Shown here: positions 1 through 14,663 of the stretch, piece by piece | Layout of the letters: every line of letters begins with the position of its first letter | Position numbering within the stretch: position 1 is the stretch's first letter | Source: a virus | Taxonomy: Duplodnaviria; Caudoviricetes | Reading direction: 5' to 3' (one strand) | Virus record (IMG/VR): IMGVR_UViG_3300020576_002361 | Span: 14,976-78,975 of that record | DNA length: 64,000 bases | Program-made: the position numbers and the translations under genes | Notes under the pieces: generated by a model | What the model saw: only the letters and a program-made list of their open reading frames with translations | Told to the model about the DNA's origin: nothing | The model's database searches: none

Positions 1-3000
1 CATATCCAGATAAAGGATCTCCTTCTACGTTTGCTGTTCCTGTTACTCCTTCCGAGGATACTACAATATAGTTTGTCTTGGTTAAAGTATCTGTATCATA
101 ACCATTGTCTATATCAAGTCTTACATTATAAGACCCTGCTCCAACATACTGATATGAAGCCGTAACTCCCTGACCGCTTGGACCAGTGAGAGTGCCGTGG
201 AAATACCACGTAGCAGTTCCGCCTGGATTCCAAGAATCTGACGAATCAAACACTACAGTTAATGGTGACTCTCCGCTTTGAATATTGGAATCAAAGAAAG
301 CATATACAGGATTCTTGCCATACGAATCAGGCGTTCCTATGAAATTTAGTTCTGGTTGATATGTATTCACTGGAACGTGAGTATAGATATCTTTCTGTAG
401 GAGCAGTTTGATGGCTCCACTAATACCAGTAGCTCCAGCAACTCCATAATTAGTATATTGCGGCTTATGTATTAGCCCTCTTGCGTCGAATACAAAGAAC
501 GGTCCGGCTCCGTTTTCCCAAACAGATCTTCTGATAAAGGTAAAGTAGTCATATTCAGACGGTCGGTGCATTATGGCTGTAGCACCTCTTGCTGTTCCAT
601 TTTGATATAACATCTGGAATAGAGGATAAGAAGTTGATACTTGTATTGCTTCTCTTGGCCATGGATTTTGAGTTGGAGTAGTAGAGGAAAGCGTATAACC
701 GTTTCCTGTCTGACTTCCATAACCAGCAGTTTCTGGCTCAGTTAGCCAAGGACAAATATACAAAGTCCTGTTTGACATTTCATCAAAATATGCCATATTA
801 TTAGACATTTGTTGTATTTGTTTCAAGCTATAATATAGACGGGCTTTAGTATAATCCTGTTGGTTTAAGAAGCTGTCTCCAAATGGAGTCGCATATCCAG
901 CCACACCCGTATTTACAGAATAAGTGCCTGTAAGATTAAATCCACCACTCACTCCTGTTATGCCCGCTTGATAACATTTTTCCAGAAATGTTCGATATGT
1001 CTTCTTATCAAACCATCCATCAGCTCCGGTCAAACCAGAAGAGGTAGGACCGGATGGACCAAAACCACTACCAACCCAGCCAGATCTATTAGCGGTCTGC
1101 TCTACTGGAGTATTACCAGCCGCAAGACCAAAGAACTGCTGAGCTTCTCTGTTTAAGCTGGTAGAATCAAAATAATTGAATCCCAGCAAAGAAGACACCC
1201 CATCTAGGTTAGGAGGGAATATACTTACGGCATCGTTTGGAGTATACGAACTTCCTGTATATCCAGACATTAAATCTATTTCATAAGTTAAGCTAGGTAC
1301 TTTTCCGCGATTACATGGGTATTGCTTGCTGCCCAACATATAATCGTATTCGCCTAATATCTTAATATTCGGGAAATAATTCTTTGCTTCTCCATAAATC
1401 TTACTCATTAACCAGTAAGTATGGGCATTGTGAAAACTAGTTAACCAGTTCTTAAATGTTGGGTTAATGTCTTCCGAAGATTGTCCAGGATCATGTGCGG
1501 TGTATCTGATATTAGCCACATCTAAAGTTATACCACCCGGATTAGTAGGATCATTACTTGGAGTTGCTGCGCCTATAAACTGAGCTGGTCTATACTGATT
1601 TGGGCTATAGTTACATCCCGAAGTAGTCGAGTGATTGAATGGTCCTGTTCTTCCCCACAAGTCCTTTAGAGTGATCTTATCAAAGAACTGATAGGTCGAT
1701 GCTCTAGGATCGTTGATTAGCTGAGGCCAGTATCCAGCATCATGTGTTTGCCCTGTTACTGCCGCTCCGAGAGGACCTGTATAACTAGAAGGAATATTAA
1801 CAAACAAATAAGGGGAGCTTATGTTTATGTAGGTAACATCTACTCCTCCTAAGTTCCTGGTGTAGTTTACCGCAGTCGAGGCATCTGTTATGGCATAAGT
1901 TCCAGAAGAGCTAGTTAAACCAATATATCCAGTTTTACCGGTCCACGTAGATGAAGTTCCTGTATTCAGTTTTACAACCTGTAAAGATCCAGTTGTTCCT
2001 CCAGAATAAGTATATTTTCTTATAGCTAACGGATAGCTTCTTGTAGCATCTAAGTTACCAGTAAGAGGAGAGAAAGGCCAAACTGGTGTAGTGTAAATAT
2101 TGTATCCAGTAAACGAACCAGCCGTAACACCTGTTAATCCCAGCGTCACGGTTGACACATAAGTTTGTTCCGCTACCGCCTGCGATCCTATTACCTGTGT
2201 TGGGAAATATTCGTTATCTGAGTTAATGAACTGAGGATAAGTTAATCCTGGTGTATATGGTATTCTTCTATCCAACTCGTTCTTCATGCTCTCGAATATT
2301 TTATTTACGCCATACATAGCACCAGACAAACCAGCCTGACAATATATGCTGCTCTTGCTAATATTTGAAGCATCTGTTACGCCGATTGCGAACGTTCCAC
2401 CAGCCATCGTAAGAACGTCGCTAGGATGATGCCAGACAGCCAACCATGAAGCAGTAGGTCCGCCAGATGTAATAGCACCAGCAGCTAAAGTAGTCGGCGT
2501 TGTATCTGTGTATTCGGCATACGGTCTGAACATGTTCAGAAGCATAACAGCCGGAATATAACAACCAGTCATACCTCTGTGGTTGTAATATCTGGTGTGC
2601 ATTTCAGCTTGCCAAGCTAATATTTTACCCAGATCCTGTTCTCTTGTTCCTGTTAGTTGATTAGTCCAATCAGCAACACTGGATTCACCAAAGGCGCCGG
2701 TTAATCCAGTCAATACATAGTTTCTAGCCACGTTACTGGAATAAGTATTCGTAGAATAGTTATTCATGGAAGCTTTATAGCTTTCCGACTGACGAGTAAC
2801 TACTGCTTGGCAAATAGGAGATGTATATTTGTGTATCTCATCAGAAAATACAGCAGCAGTTAATCCAGTAAAATACGAGTCTGGTCTCTGTCCATCTAAA
2901 CCAATAGGAGTAGTATGAAAAGGAGACGCCCAAGTATAAAATCTGGTGGCTACGTAAGCTGTTCCGCCTGGGTTATAAACTGGAATTTCTAGAGGATTGG

Positions 3001-3040
3001 TGATATCGGCTGTCGCAACAATGTTATTGTTAGCTGGCAT
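1..3040 (-). CDS. Large Gly/Thr/Ser-rich virion protein with C-proximal PKD domain (partial, runs off the window edge)
   Basis: Translated by hand from ATG at 3040 (MPANNNIVATADITNPLEIP...), open to base 1 (>1013 aa), so it is absent from the ORF track. PKD-like segment SGESPLTVVFDSSDSWNPGGTATWYF...SYQYVGAGSYNVRLDIDNGYDTDTLTKTNYIVV at ~60-310. GATAAATA late-promoter-like motif upstream (3075-3082). Confidence 0.85.
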   Translation of the reverse strand, partial: MPANNNIVATADITNPLEIPVYNPGGTAYVATRFYTWASPFHTTPIGLDGQRPDSYFTGLTAAVFSDEIHKYTSPICQAVVTRQSESYKASMNNYSTNTYSSNVARNYVLTGLTGAFGESSVADWTNQLTGTREQDLGKILAWQAEMHTRYYNHRGMTGCYIPAVMLLNMFRPYAEYTDTTPTTLAAGAITSGGPTASWLAVWHHPSDVLTMAGGTFAIGVTDASNISKSSIYCQAGLSGAMYGVNKIFESMKNELDRRIPYTPGLTYPQFINSDNEYFPTQVIGSQAVAEQTYVSTVTLGLTGVTAGSFTGYNIYTTPVWPFSPLTGNLDATRSYPLAIRKYTYSGGTTGSLQVVKLNTGTSSTWTGKTGYIGLTSSSGTYAITDASTAVNYTRNLGGVDVTYINISSPYLFVNIPSSYTGPLGAAVTGQTHDAGYWPQLINDPRASTYQFFDKITLKDLWGRTGPFNHSTTSGCNYSPNQYRPAQFIGAATPSNDPTNPGGITLDVANIRYTAHDPGQSSEDINPTFKNWLTSFHNAHTYWLMSKIYGEAKNYFPNIKILGEYDYMLGSKQYPCNRGKVPSLTYEIDLMSGYTGSSYTPNDAVSIFPPNLDGVSSLLGFNYFDSTSLNREAQQFFGLAAGNTPVEQTANRSGWVGSGFGPSGPTSSGLTGADGWFDKKTYRTFLEKCYQAGITGVSGGFNLTGTYSVNTGVAGYATPFGDSFLNQQDYTKARLYYSLKQIQQMSNNMAYFDEMSNRTLYICPWLTEPETAGYGSQTGNGYTLSSTTPTQNPWPREAIQVSTSYPLFQMLYQNGTARGATAIMHRPSEYDYFTFIRRSVWENGAGPFFVFDARGLIHKPQYTNYGVAGATGISGAIKLLLQKDIYTHVPVNTYQPELNFIGTPDSYGKNPVYAFFDSNIQSGESPLTVVFDSSDSWNPGGTATWYFHGTLTGPSGQGVTASYQYVGAGSYNVRLDIDNGYDTDTLTKTNYIVVSSEGVTGTANVEGDPLSGY

Positions 3041-3140: not shown

Positions 3141-3213
3141 TTACCGAAGTAGTGTCAACGGCAGCACGCTTGTCTCCAAAACAAGAGGAACGGGTTCAAA
3201 TCCCCTCCGGTAA
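3141..3213 (+). tRNA. tRNA-Trp(CCA), atypical or degenerate acceptor/T stem
   Basis: D arm GTGTCAACGGCAGCAC, anticodon arm CTTGT-CTCCAAA-ACAAG, T loop GGGTTCAAATCCC. The acceptor and T stems cannot both be completed in one register. Confidence 0.7.
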
Positions 3214-11204: not shown

Positions 11205-12292
11205 GGAATATTAACAGAGTACTCCTTGTTATACTTGAACACCAAAGTCGGGAGAAGCTGAGGAACATATGATCCATCGGAGAGCATCAATCCTTTTCTT
11301 CCATTATCTGCGTTTCTTATGCAAACACACACGCTTTCGTGTAAATTCTTGTCGGACGGGCAGATGATATCATTAGCTAGATAAACCAGTTCGTTCTGCG
11401 ATGGAGCTGAAAATCTATGTTCTATCTCAAAAACATCATCAGCCACTATACACACAAAATCGCACTGGTCTGCACCAGCACCAAACAAAGCTTTATGAAT
11501 AGTATCTTCTTCTGGAATATGTAGATATACTCTCTTTGGATTTGTTAACTTATTATCGGTTATAGAAAACTCAGTAGTATTTATATCATTAATACGCTTA
11601 ATCTTTAGAGCTGATTCGCTTTTATCTATATCGTAATGTCTTCTTATAGCACTATTTATCAGTGTATTCTGTTTAGATACATATTCAGCATTTGATAGCT
11701 TCAATGAAATATGAAATGGAGTACTTCCGAGAGAAGAATATAAAGCAATATCAGCCTTTCCGCCACTGCTGCCTACATGCACGCATTTCGTGAAGTAATG
11801 GTATCCCAAATCATATCCGTAGTTGGCTTCATCGTTGGTTATAAAACTTAGCTTTGTAATCTTTCTGGATTGAAAATGGGATGTTAAAATTTCAGCAAGC
11901 CGTTCTTCGCATTCTCTGTAATCATAGGTTCTATTTATAGGCTTACATACCACACTTATACGGCGAATCCTGTTATTTTTAAAACAAGAAACACCGGCTA
12001 CAGGGCGTATAGTAATCTCTCCCGCGGAAGACCTGCTGCTTTCAGTAGAAAGCTTACAATCAACATATTTAGGAAAATTGCTCCACGCAGCATATAAATC
12101 CTTCAAAAAGGCTCGCCGATCAAATGAAGATTTCCAGTTGCCATATATTATAACATTGGAGTCTCCCTCTGTTTCTGTAGCTATACACAGATCCGGTGTT
12201 TCTACATAATCTTCTTTTGAAGATAAAAACTTAACTTTGATCTTGCTAGTCAACAAAGACGATATTACAAAACCGGTATCAATACAAATCAT
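11201..12292 (-). CDS. Hypothetical protein, possible PD-(D/E)XK nuclease fold
   Basis: GGKADIALY...FHISLK resembles the catalytic D...(S/E)xK motif. Confidence 0.5.
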   Translation of the reverse strand: MICIDTGFVISSLLTSKIKVKFLSSKEDYVETPDLCIATETEGDSNVIIYGNWKSSFDRRAFLKDLYAAWSNFPKYVDCKLSTESSRSSAGEITIRPVAGVSCFKNNRIRRISVVCKPINRTYDYRECEERLAEILTSHFQSRKITKLSFITNDEANYGYDLGYHYFTKCVHVGSSGGKADIALYSSLGSTPFHISLKLSNAEYVSKQNTLINSAIRRHYDIDKSESALKIKRINDINTTEFSITDNKLTNPKRVYLHIPEEDTIHKALFGAGADQCDFVCIVADDVFEIEHRFSAPSQNELVYLANDIICPSDKNLHESVCVCIRNADNGRKGLMLSDGSYVPQLLPTLVFKYNKEYSVNIP

Positions 12293-12791
12293 ACCATTTT
12301 TTCCATGTGGACTTAGCTCTGCTAGACAGAGAAAAGATCAAAGAATGCTTAGTTGGTATATAAGGCTCTCTCAGCAGAGGCATTCCAGCTTCGTCTGGTG
12401 TAGCATCAGCCTTCTTAGCATTACAATACTTACAACAAGAAACTACATTAGTCCACTCATGCTTACCACCACGACATCTTGGTACCACGTGGTCAAGAGT
12501 TTCGACTTCTTTACATAGAGTTTCTCCGCAATATTGACACTTATAATGGTCTCTTTTGAAGACATTGTTTCTAGTCAGAGATGCGGATTTATATGGAATT
12601 CTGGTGTATTCATTTAGGACTAATACACTGGGAAGATCATAGTATCCCGTAGGAGTAGCTATGCGATAAAAATCCTCAAAGTTGTGAGGCTTCCCTGCTT
12701 TTCCAGAAAAAACAAGATTCACTGCTCTTTTCCAAGAAATCAGTGATAACACTTCTTCTGAAGAGTTTAGTAGCAAAACAGCATTTTTCAT
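12279..12791 (-). CDS. HNH endonuclease (McrA/HNH_5 type)
   Basis: RDHYKCQYCG...TLDHVVPRCRGGKHEWTNVVSCCKYCNAKK. The likely start is MKNAVLLLN at 12791, because the track start lies inside the tRNA-like RNA. Confidence 0.9.
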   Translation of the reverse strand: MKNAVLLLNSSEEVLSLISWKRAVNLVFSGKAGKPHNFEDFYRIATPTGYYDLPSVLVLNEYTRIPYKSASLTRNNVFKRDHYKCQYCGETLCKEVETLDHVVPRCRGGKHEWTNVVSCCKYCNAKKADATPDEAGMPLLREPYIPTKHSLIFSLSSRAKSTWKKWYDLY

Positions 12792-12794
12792 AAA

Positions 12795-12897
12795 GTGCCT
12801 TGGAGGGATTCGAACCCACGTATCTCGCATATAGATATAAATTTACGTTCCGAATCTATACCCGCTTGCGTTTCCTTATCCGCTCGGACACAAGGCA
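12795..12897 (-). ncRNA. tRNA-like RNA (103 nt) with expanded anticodon arm
   Basis: Perfect 7-bp acceptor TGCCTTG/CAAGGCA, D arm TCC-GAGCGGATAA-GGA, T arm GTGGG-TTCGAAT-CCCTC. CGCA/TGCG stem encloses 37 nt instead of 7. Confidence 0.75.
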
Positions 12898-12898
12898 A

Positions 12899-12971
12899 AG
12901 GTCGCGGTTGGATTTGAACCAACGTATATTCGCTTTGCAGGCGAACCCTTTGGCCACTCAGGCACACGACC
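12899..12971 (-). tRNA. tRNA-Cys(GCA)
   Basis: GGTCGTG/CGCGACC acceptor; TTCGC-CTGCAAA-GCGAA anticodon arm. Confidence 0.93.
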
Positions 12972-12975
12972 GAAA

Positions 12976-13059
12976 TAGGATCGGCGGGACTCGAACCCGC
13001 ACGTTCTTTCGAACGGAGGATTTTAAATCCTCCCGGTCTGCCAATTCCACCACGATCCT
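12976..13059 (-). tRNA. tRNA-Leu(TAA)
   Basis: AGGATCG/CGATCCT acceptor; GAGGA-TTTAAAA-TCCTC anticodon arm; long variable arm CGTTC-GAAA-GAACG. Confidence 0.93.
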
Positions 13060-13065
13060 ATGAAG

Positions 13066-13140
13066 TCGACCCGGGGAGAATTGAACTCCCGACCTGACGA
13101 TTATAAATCATCTGCTCTAAACCATCTGAGCTACGAGTCG
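13066..13140 (-). tRNA. tRNA-Ile(TAT)
   Basis: CGACTCG/CGGGTCG acceptor; GATGA-TTTATAA-TCGTC anticodon arm; GGGAG-TTCAATT-CTCCC T arm. Confidence 0.9.
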
Positions 13141-13150
13141 TACACAGAGT

Positions 13151-13178
13151 ATTATACACTCTATTTATCTCAAGTCAA
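13151..13178 (-). promoter_or_regulatory. Sigma70-like promoter TTGACT-N16-TATAAT for the tRNA cluster
   Basis: + strand ATTATA 13151-13156, AGTCAA 13173-13178. Confidence 0.8.
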
Positions 13179-13184
13179 ATCGTT

Positions 13185-14663
13185 TTAATTCCACTCATTG
13201 AACTCTTGAGAAACTTGCTTTCCAGTAAATATATTCTTGTGAGTATACTCTTCCTCCTTCTTAACCGGAGCTATAGAACCCCCAGAGAATAACTTAGGAG
13301 CATTGACTGTTGGTTTAGCCTTCTGTTGAGGTGCTGGAGTTGGTTGCGGAGAAGGTGTACTAGGTGGAGCATTGACAGAAGCATTAACGTCAAAGAATCG
13401 CATCTTTGGTTTATCTAGCCCAAGAATAAACTTTCTATTCCTAGAAATATCAGAGTATCTATTCTTGAGTTGTTTGATCATAACCTGGCCATATGCTTCT
13501 AGTTCATCTGTAGTAACAATAGCAAACATCAGGTCTGCTGTATGATTCAATCCTGCGCTTTCTGCGACATTCTCTTGACCAGGATCTGTACTAGCAGCGC
13601 CTTCTCTATTAAACTGAGCGGCTGTCAAAATAGGCACATCAAAATCTTGCGCCATAGCTCTCAACTCTTCTGCTACGGACTTGACTAAGGTATAGGAGTT
13701 GGCTGAAGTATTTTTCTTGAACTTGTAGGATTCGCAGATGTTTAAATAGTCGATTATGATAACATCAGGAGTAAACTTTTTCTTGGACTTCAACTCTTCC
13801 AGTAAATGTCTGAAATTCAGAGCATTAGCAGAAGAAGTAGGATACTCTTTGATAATCAACTTTCCTTTATAGGCTGATTGTACTTTGTTAATCTTAGCCA
13901 TAAAGTTTTGCTTAGTCATATACTTGATGCTGGACAACTCTACGTCAATAAGATTAGCGTCTATTCTTTCTGCGATTCTTTCTTCTGCCATTTCGCAGGT
14001 AATATACAGAACATTCAAATTTTGCTTCAGAGAAGAAGCAGCATAGTGGCAAAGAAAAATAGACTTACCACCACCAGGAGGAGCCAGGACTATGTTTAAT
14101 GTCTTTCTGGATAGACCACCTTCTGTAATATCATTCATCAACTCAAGATCAAATGCTATCTTGTGCTGAGGTTGACTATACAAATCAAATCGATTACTAG
14201 CATCGTCGAAGTATTCGTGACCGACTTGAACATCAAAAGAGATGGACAGAGCTTGTTGAAGAAGCTCTGGAATAATATTCGGAGATTTGTTTGATTTGGA
14301 TTTATTATCCAGTATTTCTACGGCTTCTAGTATAGCATTGTAAACCGCTTTGTTTTTACAAAACTTTTCAGTTTCATCCAGAAGCCAGTCTTCAAGCTCT
14401 CCACCGGCGTAGGAATAGATTTCTGATAGTTCTTTTTTATATTCGTTTATGTCTTCTTGACGCAAAGACAGAGCATCTATAGCTATGGAGATAGCTGACT
14501 CCGTAGGAGCTTTTCCATAGGAATCATAGAACTCGGATACCAATTCAAAGAGTTTCTTCTCTGACGGATTAGAAAAATACTCTGGCTTAATAAAAGCCAG
14601 AGATTTTCTTCTAAACGAATCGTTTGTTATCAGATTCGCTAGGATTATTCTTTCTATATTCAT
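13185..14663 (-). CDS. 41: Replicative DnaB-like helicase (T4 gp41)
   Basis: MNIERIILANL start, Walker A APPGGGKS, LYITCEMAEERIAERIDAN, IIIDYLN, KQLKNRY. Confidence 0.96.
   Translation of the reverse strand: MNIERIILANLITNDSFRRKSLAFIKPEYFSNPSEKKLFELVSEFYDSYGKAPTESAISIAIDALSLRQEDINEYKKELSEIYSYAGGELEDWLLDETEKFCKNKAVYNAILEAVEILDNKSKSNKSPNIIPELLQQALSISFDVQVGHEYFDDASNRFDLYSQPQHKIAFDLELMNDITEGGLSRKTLNIVLAPPGGGKSIFLCHYAASSLKQNLNVLYITCEMAEERIAERIDANLIDVELSSIKYMTKQNFMAKINKVQSAYKGKLIIKEYPTSSANALNFRHLLEELKSKKKFTPDVIIIDYLNICESYKFKKNTSANSYTLVKSVAEELRAMAQDFDVPILTAAQFNREGAASTDPGQENVAESAGLNHTADLMFAIVTTDELEAYGQVMIKQLKNRYSDISRNRKFILGLDKPKMRFFDVNASVNAPPSTPSPQPTPAPQQKAKPTVNAPKLFSGGSIAPVKKEEEYTHKNIFTGKQVSQEFNEWN

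Follow-up and report, generated by a model that had tools for sequence, protein, structure and literature searches.

A tRNA frame with a long helix in place of the anticodon loop: a candidate tRNA-like stable RNA at the end of a phage tRNA cluster

What is an RNA gene that keeps the frame of a tRNA and gives up the anticodon loop? The question is raised by a 103-nt unit, here called X, on the minus strand at positions 12795–12897 of a 64,000-nt stretch of viral DNA (the window), which is part of IMG/VR virus record IMGVR_UViG_3300020576_002361, a 78,975-bp (79-kb) contig estimated to be 44% complete, whose source is a T4-like myovirus of aquatic samples. X stands last in a tRNA cluster, immediately ahead of an HNH endonuclease gene; its own positions are numbered from its 5′ end. 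By combining the reading of its frame and fold with a comparison of two close lineages and a survey of syntenic relatives, we arrive, with somewhat better than even confidence, at the view that X is a processed and selected tRNA-framed RNA, and neither a working nor a spliced tRNA. We suggest that X is derived from a tRNA, most like tRNA-Cys, in which the 7-nt anticodon loop has been swapped for a long helix; since a helix takes the place of that loop, X would be unable to read codons.

A tRNA frame around a long helix

The frame of X begins with an acceptor stem, TGCCTTG/CAAGGCA, in which all seven pairs are Watson–Crick, and continues through U8 and G9, a D arm of 3 bp with GG in its loop (TCC-GAGCGGATAA-GGA) and A26. 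The middle, (A)CGCA ... TGCG(A) around 37 nt, is followed by a variable region GATAC, a T arm GTGGG-TTCGAAT-CCCTC (12803–12819), for which both the sequence and the family alignment described below give a single mismatch, U50.U64, and the discriminator C. Measured against canonical tRNA (RF00005), X has the tertiary nucleotides U8, A14, G18, G19, T54, T55 and C56, and departs from it where a 5-bp anticodon stem would be expected to close a 7-nt loop that holds U33 and the anticodon, having a 4-bp base that encloses 37 nt. In these respects the sequence reads as it did in the original prediction, an earlier note made from the letters of the window, which described a tRNA-shaped unit, last after Ile, Leu and Cys, with a perfect acceptor stem, GG in the D loop and a TTCGAAT loop, and with a CGCA/TGCG stem around 37 nt in place of the anticodon loop.

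The same note proposed tRNA searches as a check, and neither of those run at default settings detects the unit: ARAGORN does not call X, and the Rfam tRNA model RF00005 gives no match to it even at E ≤ 10. When 30 nt of the insert were deleted in silico, ARAGORN called a 73-nt tRNA in each of eight variants out of eight; the frame therefore has the quality of a complete tRNA, and the insert alone hides X from detection. Among the 19 tRNAs of the genome the closest to this frame is tRNA-Cys, with 43 of 66 frame positions shared, the two being alike in their 3-bp D stem, a GAGYGG..AA D loop and a NATAC variable region. The neighbouring tRNA-Cys(GCA), a member of RF00005, further shares with X the CGC/GCG core of the anticodon stem and the T arm, whereas X has 37 nt for the CUGCAAA loop, C and not U as discriminator, and another acceptor sequence. 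The likeness is suggestive, not proof, of an origin of X from tRNA-Cys by tandem duplication.

Two other parses of the unit were tried and rejected. In a class II tRNA, with the long hairpin read as a variable arm, no anticodon arm is left before the hairpin, and the CGCA/UGCG base encloses the whole insert. ARAGORN with introns allowed returns a tRNA-Arg(tcg) in which a 12-nt ‘intron’ is placed at 30/31 and the variable arm pairs poorly, a parse that we take as an artefact.

With the tRNA frame imposed as a constraint, the insert (X 32–68; 12830–12866) and its flanks fold into a single long arm. A base of 4 bp (X 28–31, CGCA, with 69–72, UGCG; 12826–12870), the positional homologue of the anticodon stem with an A27.A43-type mismatch outside it, leads through a 3×3 internal loop into a helix of 11 bp (X 35–45 with 55–65; 12833–12863), three of them G.U, that is closed by the 9-nt loop CGGAACGUA (X 46–54; 12844–12852). 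The fold is computed at −26.4 kcal/mol, against −21.1 kcal/mol for the 7-bp stem with a 17-nt loop put forward in the original prediction; the insert does have a stem of its own, as that prediction held, in a register stronger than the one it gave.

Whether this arm belongs to the RNA or to the DNA can be approached by folding both strands. In the lineage of the window the arm (X 27–73, 4-bp base included) folds at −12.0 kcal/mol in the sense direction (z −2.5) and at −5.9 kcal/mol in antisense (z −0.7); in a sister lineage, introduced below, the values are −14.0 kcal/mol (z −4.0) and −4.0 kcal/mol (z about −0.6). The gap between the strands stems from the G.U pairs, and this dependence, together with the poor antisense fold, points to a feature of the RNA in preference to a DNA palindrome. 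It speaks against the idea of a DNA-level element, an inverted repeat linked to the HNH enzyme, which would bind a protein or give immunity from cleavage, for example as a target tRNA gene disrupted against the phage's own endonuclease. We consider such an element very unlikely, even though the HNH gene adjoins X and is mobile between contexts, one of which (L090, below) has no upstream tRNA, and one relative (L082) bears a perfect 20-nt palindrome in the corresponding arm. A precedent is SegB of T4, which targets tRNA-gene DNA: the site that it recognises is the T stem-loop sequence in the DNA, and its action leads to the co-inheritance of flanking tRNA genes (PMC2330249). The T arm, the part that recognition of the SegB type would use, is intact in X. 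A search of the 79-kb contig for a copy or an antisense target of the insert returned only chance matches of at most 12 nt.

On the preferred reading, that of a processed tRNA-framed RNA, one sigma-70-type promoter would serve tRNA-Ile, tRNA-Leu, tRNA-Cys and X, and the transcript would continue into the HNH gene. With acceptor stem, D/T elbow and discriminator all intact, X would be a substrate of host RNase P, of RNase Z or exonucleases, and of the CCA-adding enzyme. We infer that X is expressed, processed and stable, the likeliest product being a stable excised RNA of about 103–106 nt. Processing would also have effects in cis, for an RNase P cut at the 5′ end of X would leave tRNA-Cys with a 1-nt trailer, and a cut at its 3′ end would free the HNH mRNA 3 nt before the AUG. 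Among related phages the occupants of the position from tRNA-Cys to the HNH gene are replaced in cassette fashion, perhaps through endonuclease-driven recombination at the constant tRNA ends.

An insert in an anticodon arm also invites a reading in terms of splicing. A group I intron needs about 200 nt or more with a P1–P9 core, and the insert has 37 nt and no Rfam intron match; as for a tmRNA, default ARAGORN reports none and the match to the Rfam tmRNA model has 7.4 bits, where the gathering score is 47. That X is too short for either had been recognised from the start. The original prediction went on to raise a protein-spliced intron, that is, a tRNA from which a protein enzyme would remove about 30 nt before the halves are ligated, giving for instance the anticodon CUA, and this we now hold to be extremely improbable. 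With its mature tRNA domain and extended anticodon arm X does resemble the intron-containing pre-tRNAs of eukaryotes and archaea, in silico deletion of 30 nt of the insert yields a tRNA(cta) that ARAGORN accepts, and the CUA at X 64–66 is unchanged in the sister lineage. X nevertheless lies in a bacterial phage, and bacterial hosts are not known to have a tRNA splicing endonuclease of this kind. In place of a bulge-helix-bulge, with two 3-nt bulges and a 4-bp helix between them, X has a 3×3 internal loop between helices of 4 and 11 bp. The domains tRNA_int_endo (PF01974), RtcB (PF01139) and the Rnl2-type RNA_ligase (PF09414) are absent from the contig, which is incomplete, and a search of it for Rnl1 (PF09511) found no ligase with a control that was also silent and is hence uninformative.

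The nucleotides themselves fit splicing no better. Cutting at the canonical 37/38 position would leave the loop AGCGGGA in the lineage of the window and AAUAGGG in the sister lineage, and with them G33 or A33 and the anticodon CGG or UAG, so that no conserved anticodon emerges; X 32–37, the would-be anticodon loop, is in fact the part least conserved between the lineages. The CUA alternative would place U at position 37 and require cuts inside a helix; no mechanism for this cutting and joining is evident, and a canonical tRNA(CUA) is already encoded at genome positions 2968–3040, outside the window. The middles of the relatives described below are, moreover, quite different from that of X, and one is without any loop.

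Constraint between two close lineages

Nine contigs from different samples (JGI, ENA and Logan) encode exactly this HNH protein and are shown here as eight distinct places; the waters sampled are those of JGI 3300045347, 3300045353 and 3300045354, SRR32380198, SRR25018354, SRR25018355, SRR23702518 and ERZ964708; on those eight, five are identical to the window across X and three (L164, L167 and L168) make up a second lineage. Between the two lineages the HNH gene has accumulated 29 nucleotide differences and not one amino-acid change (pS 0.24, dS about 0.29), whereas X differs at only 5–6 of its 103 nt: C16U in the D loop, GCG33–35 to AUA, A68G and C71U. The 31-nt hairpin region X 38–68 holds one change, and the 17 nt of X 45–61, which include the 9-nt loop, hold none. 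Set against the synonymous rate, which is taken from the HNH gene alone, so few changes have a probability of 3e-7 for the whole of X, of 0.0025 for X 38–68 and of 0.01 for X 45–61.

The kind of change can be examined as well as the number. C71U turns the pair G29–C71 into G.U, so that pairing is kept. The triple change at 33–35 adds the pairs A33–U67 and U34–A66 and converts G35.U65 to A–U, by which the helix grows from 11 to 13 bp and the junction loop in the second lineage becomes 1×1 in place of 3×3. A68G turns U–A into U.G in the 7-bp register first proposed, while in the preferred fold position 68 belongs to the internal loop. Between the same lineages the tRNA-Cys next to X has undergone a compensatory change of the classical type, C31–G39 to U–A.

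These observations bear on the main rival to a selected product, namely that X is an inert pseudo-tRNA: a duplicated gene that was killed by a 30-nt insertion or a quasipalindrome in its anticodon loop, is still young, and is carried along in the operon. We regard it, and with it the insertion scar named in the original prediction, as a serious possibility, albeit a distinctly minor one. That X has 5–6 changes in 103 nt next to a pS of 0.24 argues against it, as do the nature of C71U and of the triple change, which keep or extend the pairing; A68G does so only if the 7-bp register is the true one. The acceptor stem (7/7) and the D stem of X are, in addition, perfect. The same comparison can be turned in favour of a pseudo-tRNA, in that the triple change, clustered as it is, resembles a template switch and a mosaic block of low divergence could account for the apparent conservation. 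The relatives of the slot, to which we now turn, supply arguments on both sides.

Turnover of the slot in distant relatives

Four syntenic contigs were reached through the nearest homologues of the gp41 helicase and of the HNH protein, and they show the same neighbourhood with other occupants. In L157 and L158 (gp41 65%) the order is Ile, Leu, Cys, Xa, Xb, HNH. Here L157 Xa, of 74 nt, has a G1.G72 mismatch and a stem that can be drawn either as 4 bp closing a 9-nt loop or as 5 bp, C.C mismatch included, closing one of 8 nt, and L157 Xb, of 73 nt, resembles a tRNA-Gln(UUG) in which the D and T loops are degenerate. L159 (gp41 60%) reads Ile, Ile, an open reading frame (ORF), Cys, Xa, Xb, HNH. 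Its Xa (L159:4606–4684; 79 nt) has UUCUAGA, a textbook amber-suppressor loop with CUA, and 4 extra nt 5′ of the anticodon stem, with which the stem can reach about 8 bp, and its Xb is a tRNA-Lys(UUU) of ordinary size whose D arm, A27.A43 and 4-bp stem are as in X.

L082 (gp41 59%) carries three units, in the order Ile, Cys, X1, X2, X3, HNH. In the first (L082:2705–2782; 78 nt) the anticodon arm has become a perfect 10-bp hairpin with a tetraloop; the arm is the perfect 20-nt palindrome GAATATGGTCGACCATATTC, with GTCGAC inside, and may be the end-point of quasipalindrome correction. The second has 84 nt, and the third, of 115 nt, combines a Leu(UAG)-like loop with a 41-nt variable arm. In L084 a truncated Cys half is followed by an ordinary tRNA-Leu(UAG) and the HNH gene, the 5′ half of tRNA-Cys, GGTCGGCACCTGAGCGGCATATTAGG, at L084:2876–2905 running straight into the intact tRNA-Leu(UAG), an arrangement that points to a deletion or a recombination event at this place.

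Underneath this variety lies a constant frame, TG-NNN-GAG(C/Y)GGA(Y)AA-(K)GN-A ... T arm, that the units of the relatives share. In an alignment of nine units (X and eight related ones) 98.5% of the acceptor, D and T cells are paired, with compensatory changes in 11 of 15 pairs; none of 500 shuffles reached the observed values, and controls in which the alignment was slid gave 33–49% pairing. The pairing of the frame in this family is far beyond chance, and while the frame covaries, variation is concentrated in the middle. The exchange is sharply bounded. Between the window and L157 the Ile, Leu and Cys genes are 93–100% identical and the HNH gene is 65–85% identical per 40-nt step (about 80% overall), and identity collapses exactly over the stretch from Cys to HNH, which in this respect resembles a cassette site.

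The HNH gene may travel too. At L090:1–170 an HNH gene 85% identical to that of the window stands behind a DNA methyltransferase-like ORF, without tRNAs, and with the junction TTTATGAAAAAT as in the window. Because this copy follows a methyltransferase gene and no tRNA, it suggests that the HNH cassette moves between sites. A junction of 2–4 nt to a tRNA 3′ end is found in four of six HNH contexts.

Exact and degenerate DNA patterns of X (3′ half, 5′ half, and D arm to T arm) had no match in IMG/VR; a looser pattern there recovered no member of the X family, its matches being common tRNA genes for Ser, Cys and Met together with several stretches that carry no tRNA call; a scan for acceptor stems combined with T arms gave mostly false positives; and the HNH protein as query found no relatives in IMG/VR. 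In metagenomes the same protein query gave 65 loci, all at 65% identity or less, of which four have a tRNA on the same strand within 300 nt upstream; only among the nearest of these loci does the HNH gene stand in tRNA clusters. No aberrant tRNA unit was seen at the 65 loci, where the gaps hold small ORFs. As a separate observation, an orphan 3′ half of a tRNA (T arm and an acceptor strand ending in GCGCCA) lies at L097:187–245, after tRNA-Arg(ACG) and just upstream of an HNH homologue.

For the inert pseudo-tRNA this survey cuts both ways. The slot is gained, lost and rearranged among relatives, as the Cys half of L084 and the degenerate D and T loops of L157 Xb illustrate, and X, which cannot decode, has a U.U mismatch in its T stem. 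A family that varies in the middle on a covarying frame is, on the other hand, not the pattern of uniform decay. We return to the preferred reading, that of a selected product, with the points that weigh against it gathered here. The T-stem mismatch is one. Another is that the insert of X is not kept in the more distant relatives, hence no deep covariation is to be had for the helix. The original prediction had asked whether homologues conserve the insert structure, and the answer is divided: the distant relatives do not keep it, and the sister lineage does, with pairing-preserving changes. In L084 an ordinary tRNA-Leu adjoins the HNH gene, so that X is dispensable for the punctuation of the transcript as such. 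The evidence for constraint covers two lineages only, and these share a tract of 175 nt at 12651–12826 (X 72–103 and HNH nt 1–140) that has no lineage difference at all, while the rest of the HNH gene has the 29 synonymous differences; either recent recombination produced this tract or it is a 5′ region of the mRNA under constraint. The low divergence of X may thus come in part from recent recombination in a mosaic region, and the change of GCG to AUA could come from a template switch (quasipalindrome correction) and not from selection.

Likeness to known stable RNAs, and the setting of X

What X resembles is found in other phages. RNA1 and RNA2 of T5 (NC_005859, misc_RNA T5s03 and T5s06) are annotated as ‘tRNA-like stable RNA with unknown functions’ and, like X, belong to a phage tRNA cluster in which they share the strand of the tRNAs and have HNH endonuclease genes nearby. 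Both, as X does, keep the acceptor stem and the canonical T arm and carry non-anticodon structure in the middle, and RNA1 also has a D arm of tRNA type. RNA1 is built on a tRNA-Leu (class II) frame with a larger, multi-hairpin middle, in 144 nt, in contrast to the class I, Cys-like frame and the one long helix of X in 103 nt; and whereas stable RNAs were observed for T5, the RNA of X is a predicted one. In T4, rnaD and rnaC (‘small, stable RNA; species 2’ and ‘species 1’) stand last in the tRNA cluster, which holds the homing endonuclease gene segB. The T arm of rnaC, CCGGG-TTCGAAT-CCCGG, is followed by a partly paired acceptor stem and accompanied by a non-tRNA middle. Unlike X, rnaC lacks a recognisable D arm, and its acceptor stem contains two U.U mismatches; rnaC and rnaD are also larger than X (139 and 119 nt) and without sequence homology to it.

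Consistent with this, a blastn search of X against 50,697 phage records returned only short T-arm matches to ordinary tRNAs and no homology to the T4 or T5 RNAs. The tRNA-like stable RNAs form a class by architecture and not one homologous family. X matches that class in every feature visible at the level of sequence, and probably represents a further example of these poorly understood RNAs. In the literature on phage tRNAs, comprising reviews and papers on tRNAs versus defence, we found no description of such a unit.

A role of X in trans is possible, and a decoy for tRNA-directed enzymes, in line with the mimic or decoy that the original prediction had proposed, is our leading guess as to what it might be, in view of the published counter-defence by phage tRNAs. 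In its specific form this guess holds that the frame would bind a host enzyme directed at tRNA, such as an anticodon nuclease or another defence, a modification enzyme or a sensor, and that the helix would make the RNA uncleavable or unusable, thereby protecting phage translation. An elbow and acceptor left intact while the anticodon loop is gone, and a hypervariable middle on a constant frame among relatives, as in an arms race, would suit such a sponge, and phage tRNAs are known to counter tRNA-targeting defences through changes in the anticodon loop (PMC10264068, PMC11464382, PMC11555353). In those known cases, however, it is functional tRNAs that stand in for cleaved host tRNAs, and no decoy is involved; binding by many anticodon nucleases depends on the anticodon loop, and no defence or counter-defence gene is linked to X; in this form we judge the proposal unlikely. 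A broader version, which we put forward tentatively and think rather doubtful, is a tRNA-chassis system in which the constant frame would express, process and stabilise exchangeable RNA modules that act in trans, for example as uncleavable decoys for host defence nucleases directed at tRNA, or as riboregulators, and that are swapped at the constant tRNA ends by HNH-provoked recombination.

Species 1 and 2 of T4 and RNA1 and RNA2 of T5 have been annotated without an assigned function, and beside them X is a small and simple example, a single helix on a class I frame. To these classic cases it adds a sister lineage that allows a first test of constraint, and relatives with different middles in the same slot on a covarying frame. 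Should RNAs of this kind be products of selection, a class of phage genes escapes annotation pipelines and the tRNA frame serves a non-decoding use. Taken alone, X is a modest extension that does not reveal a function.

The gene order on the minus strand runs from gp41 through the promoter, tRNA-Ile(UAU), tRNA-Leu(UAA), tRNA-Cys(GCA) and X to the ATG of the HNH_5 gene, 3 nt further on. The gp41 helicase gene (13185–14663) has DNA-level matches to gp41 of cyanophages and pelagiphages, and its nearest IMG/VR relatives reach only 47–54% amino-acid identity. The near-consensus sigma-70-type promoter, TTGACT-16-TATAAT (13151–13178; 11 of 12 hexamer matches), lies just upstream of tRNA-Ile, and a TTGACT...TATAAT/TATACT block is likewise found 5′ of tRNA-Ile in L157, L159, L082 and L160. 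The three tRNA genes, all called by both ARAGORN and Rfam, are tRNA-Ile, the first of the cluster (13065–13140; 75 of 76 nt identical in L157), tRNA-Leu (12975–13060; 86 of 86) and tRNA-Cys (12899–12971). X is co-oriented with them as the last unit behind the one promoter, with spacers of 1 nt to tRNA-Cys and 3 nt to the HNH gene, and no terminator-like site was found between X and the HNH ATG.

The HNH_5 endonuclease gene (12279–12791; 170 aa; Pfam PF14279, E 4e-13) has its ATG 3 nt past the discriminator of X. A longer ORF of 183 aa (12279–12830), which starts inside X at an ATG at 12830 and adds 13 codons, was rejected as a gene-calling artefact; because this N-terminal extension is not conserved among HNH homologues, we place the true start at the ATG of 12791. 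That ATG has no conserved Shine–Dalgarno sequence, and the sole AAGG lies inside the acceptor stem of X.

Unusual tRNA genes were also met elsewhere. In other T4-like phages a tRNA-Ile(UAU) that lies 3′ of gp41 (L076:5414–5504, L080:3826–3916 and L071:3192–3288) has a long extra variable arm, unusual for Ile, and a length of 91–97 nt; ARAGORN reads the one in L071 with a 4-base anticodon (taag). In the genome of X itself, outside the window, a sub-threshold tRNA-like stretch at G000:C1:8190–8262 has the T arm ATGGG-TTCGAAT-CCCAT and is called by ARAGORN, as Leu(taa), only at a relaxed threshold. Within the window, Rfam recognises a tRNA at 3143–3212 on the plus strand (41 bits) that ARAGORN does not report; its loop is CUCCAAA (Trp, CCA), and it stands just before tRNA-His and tRNA-Gln.

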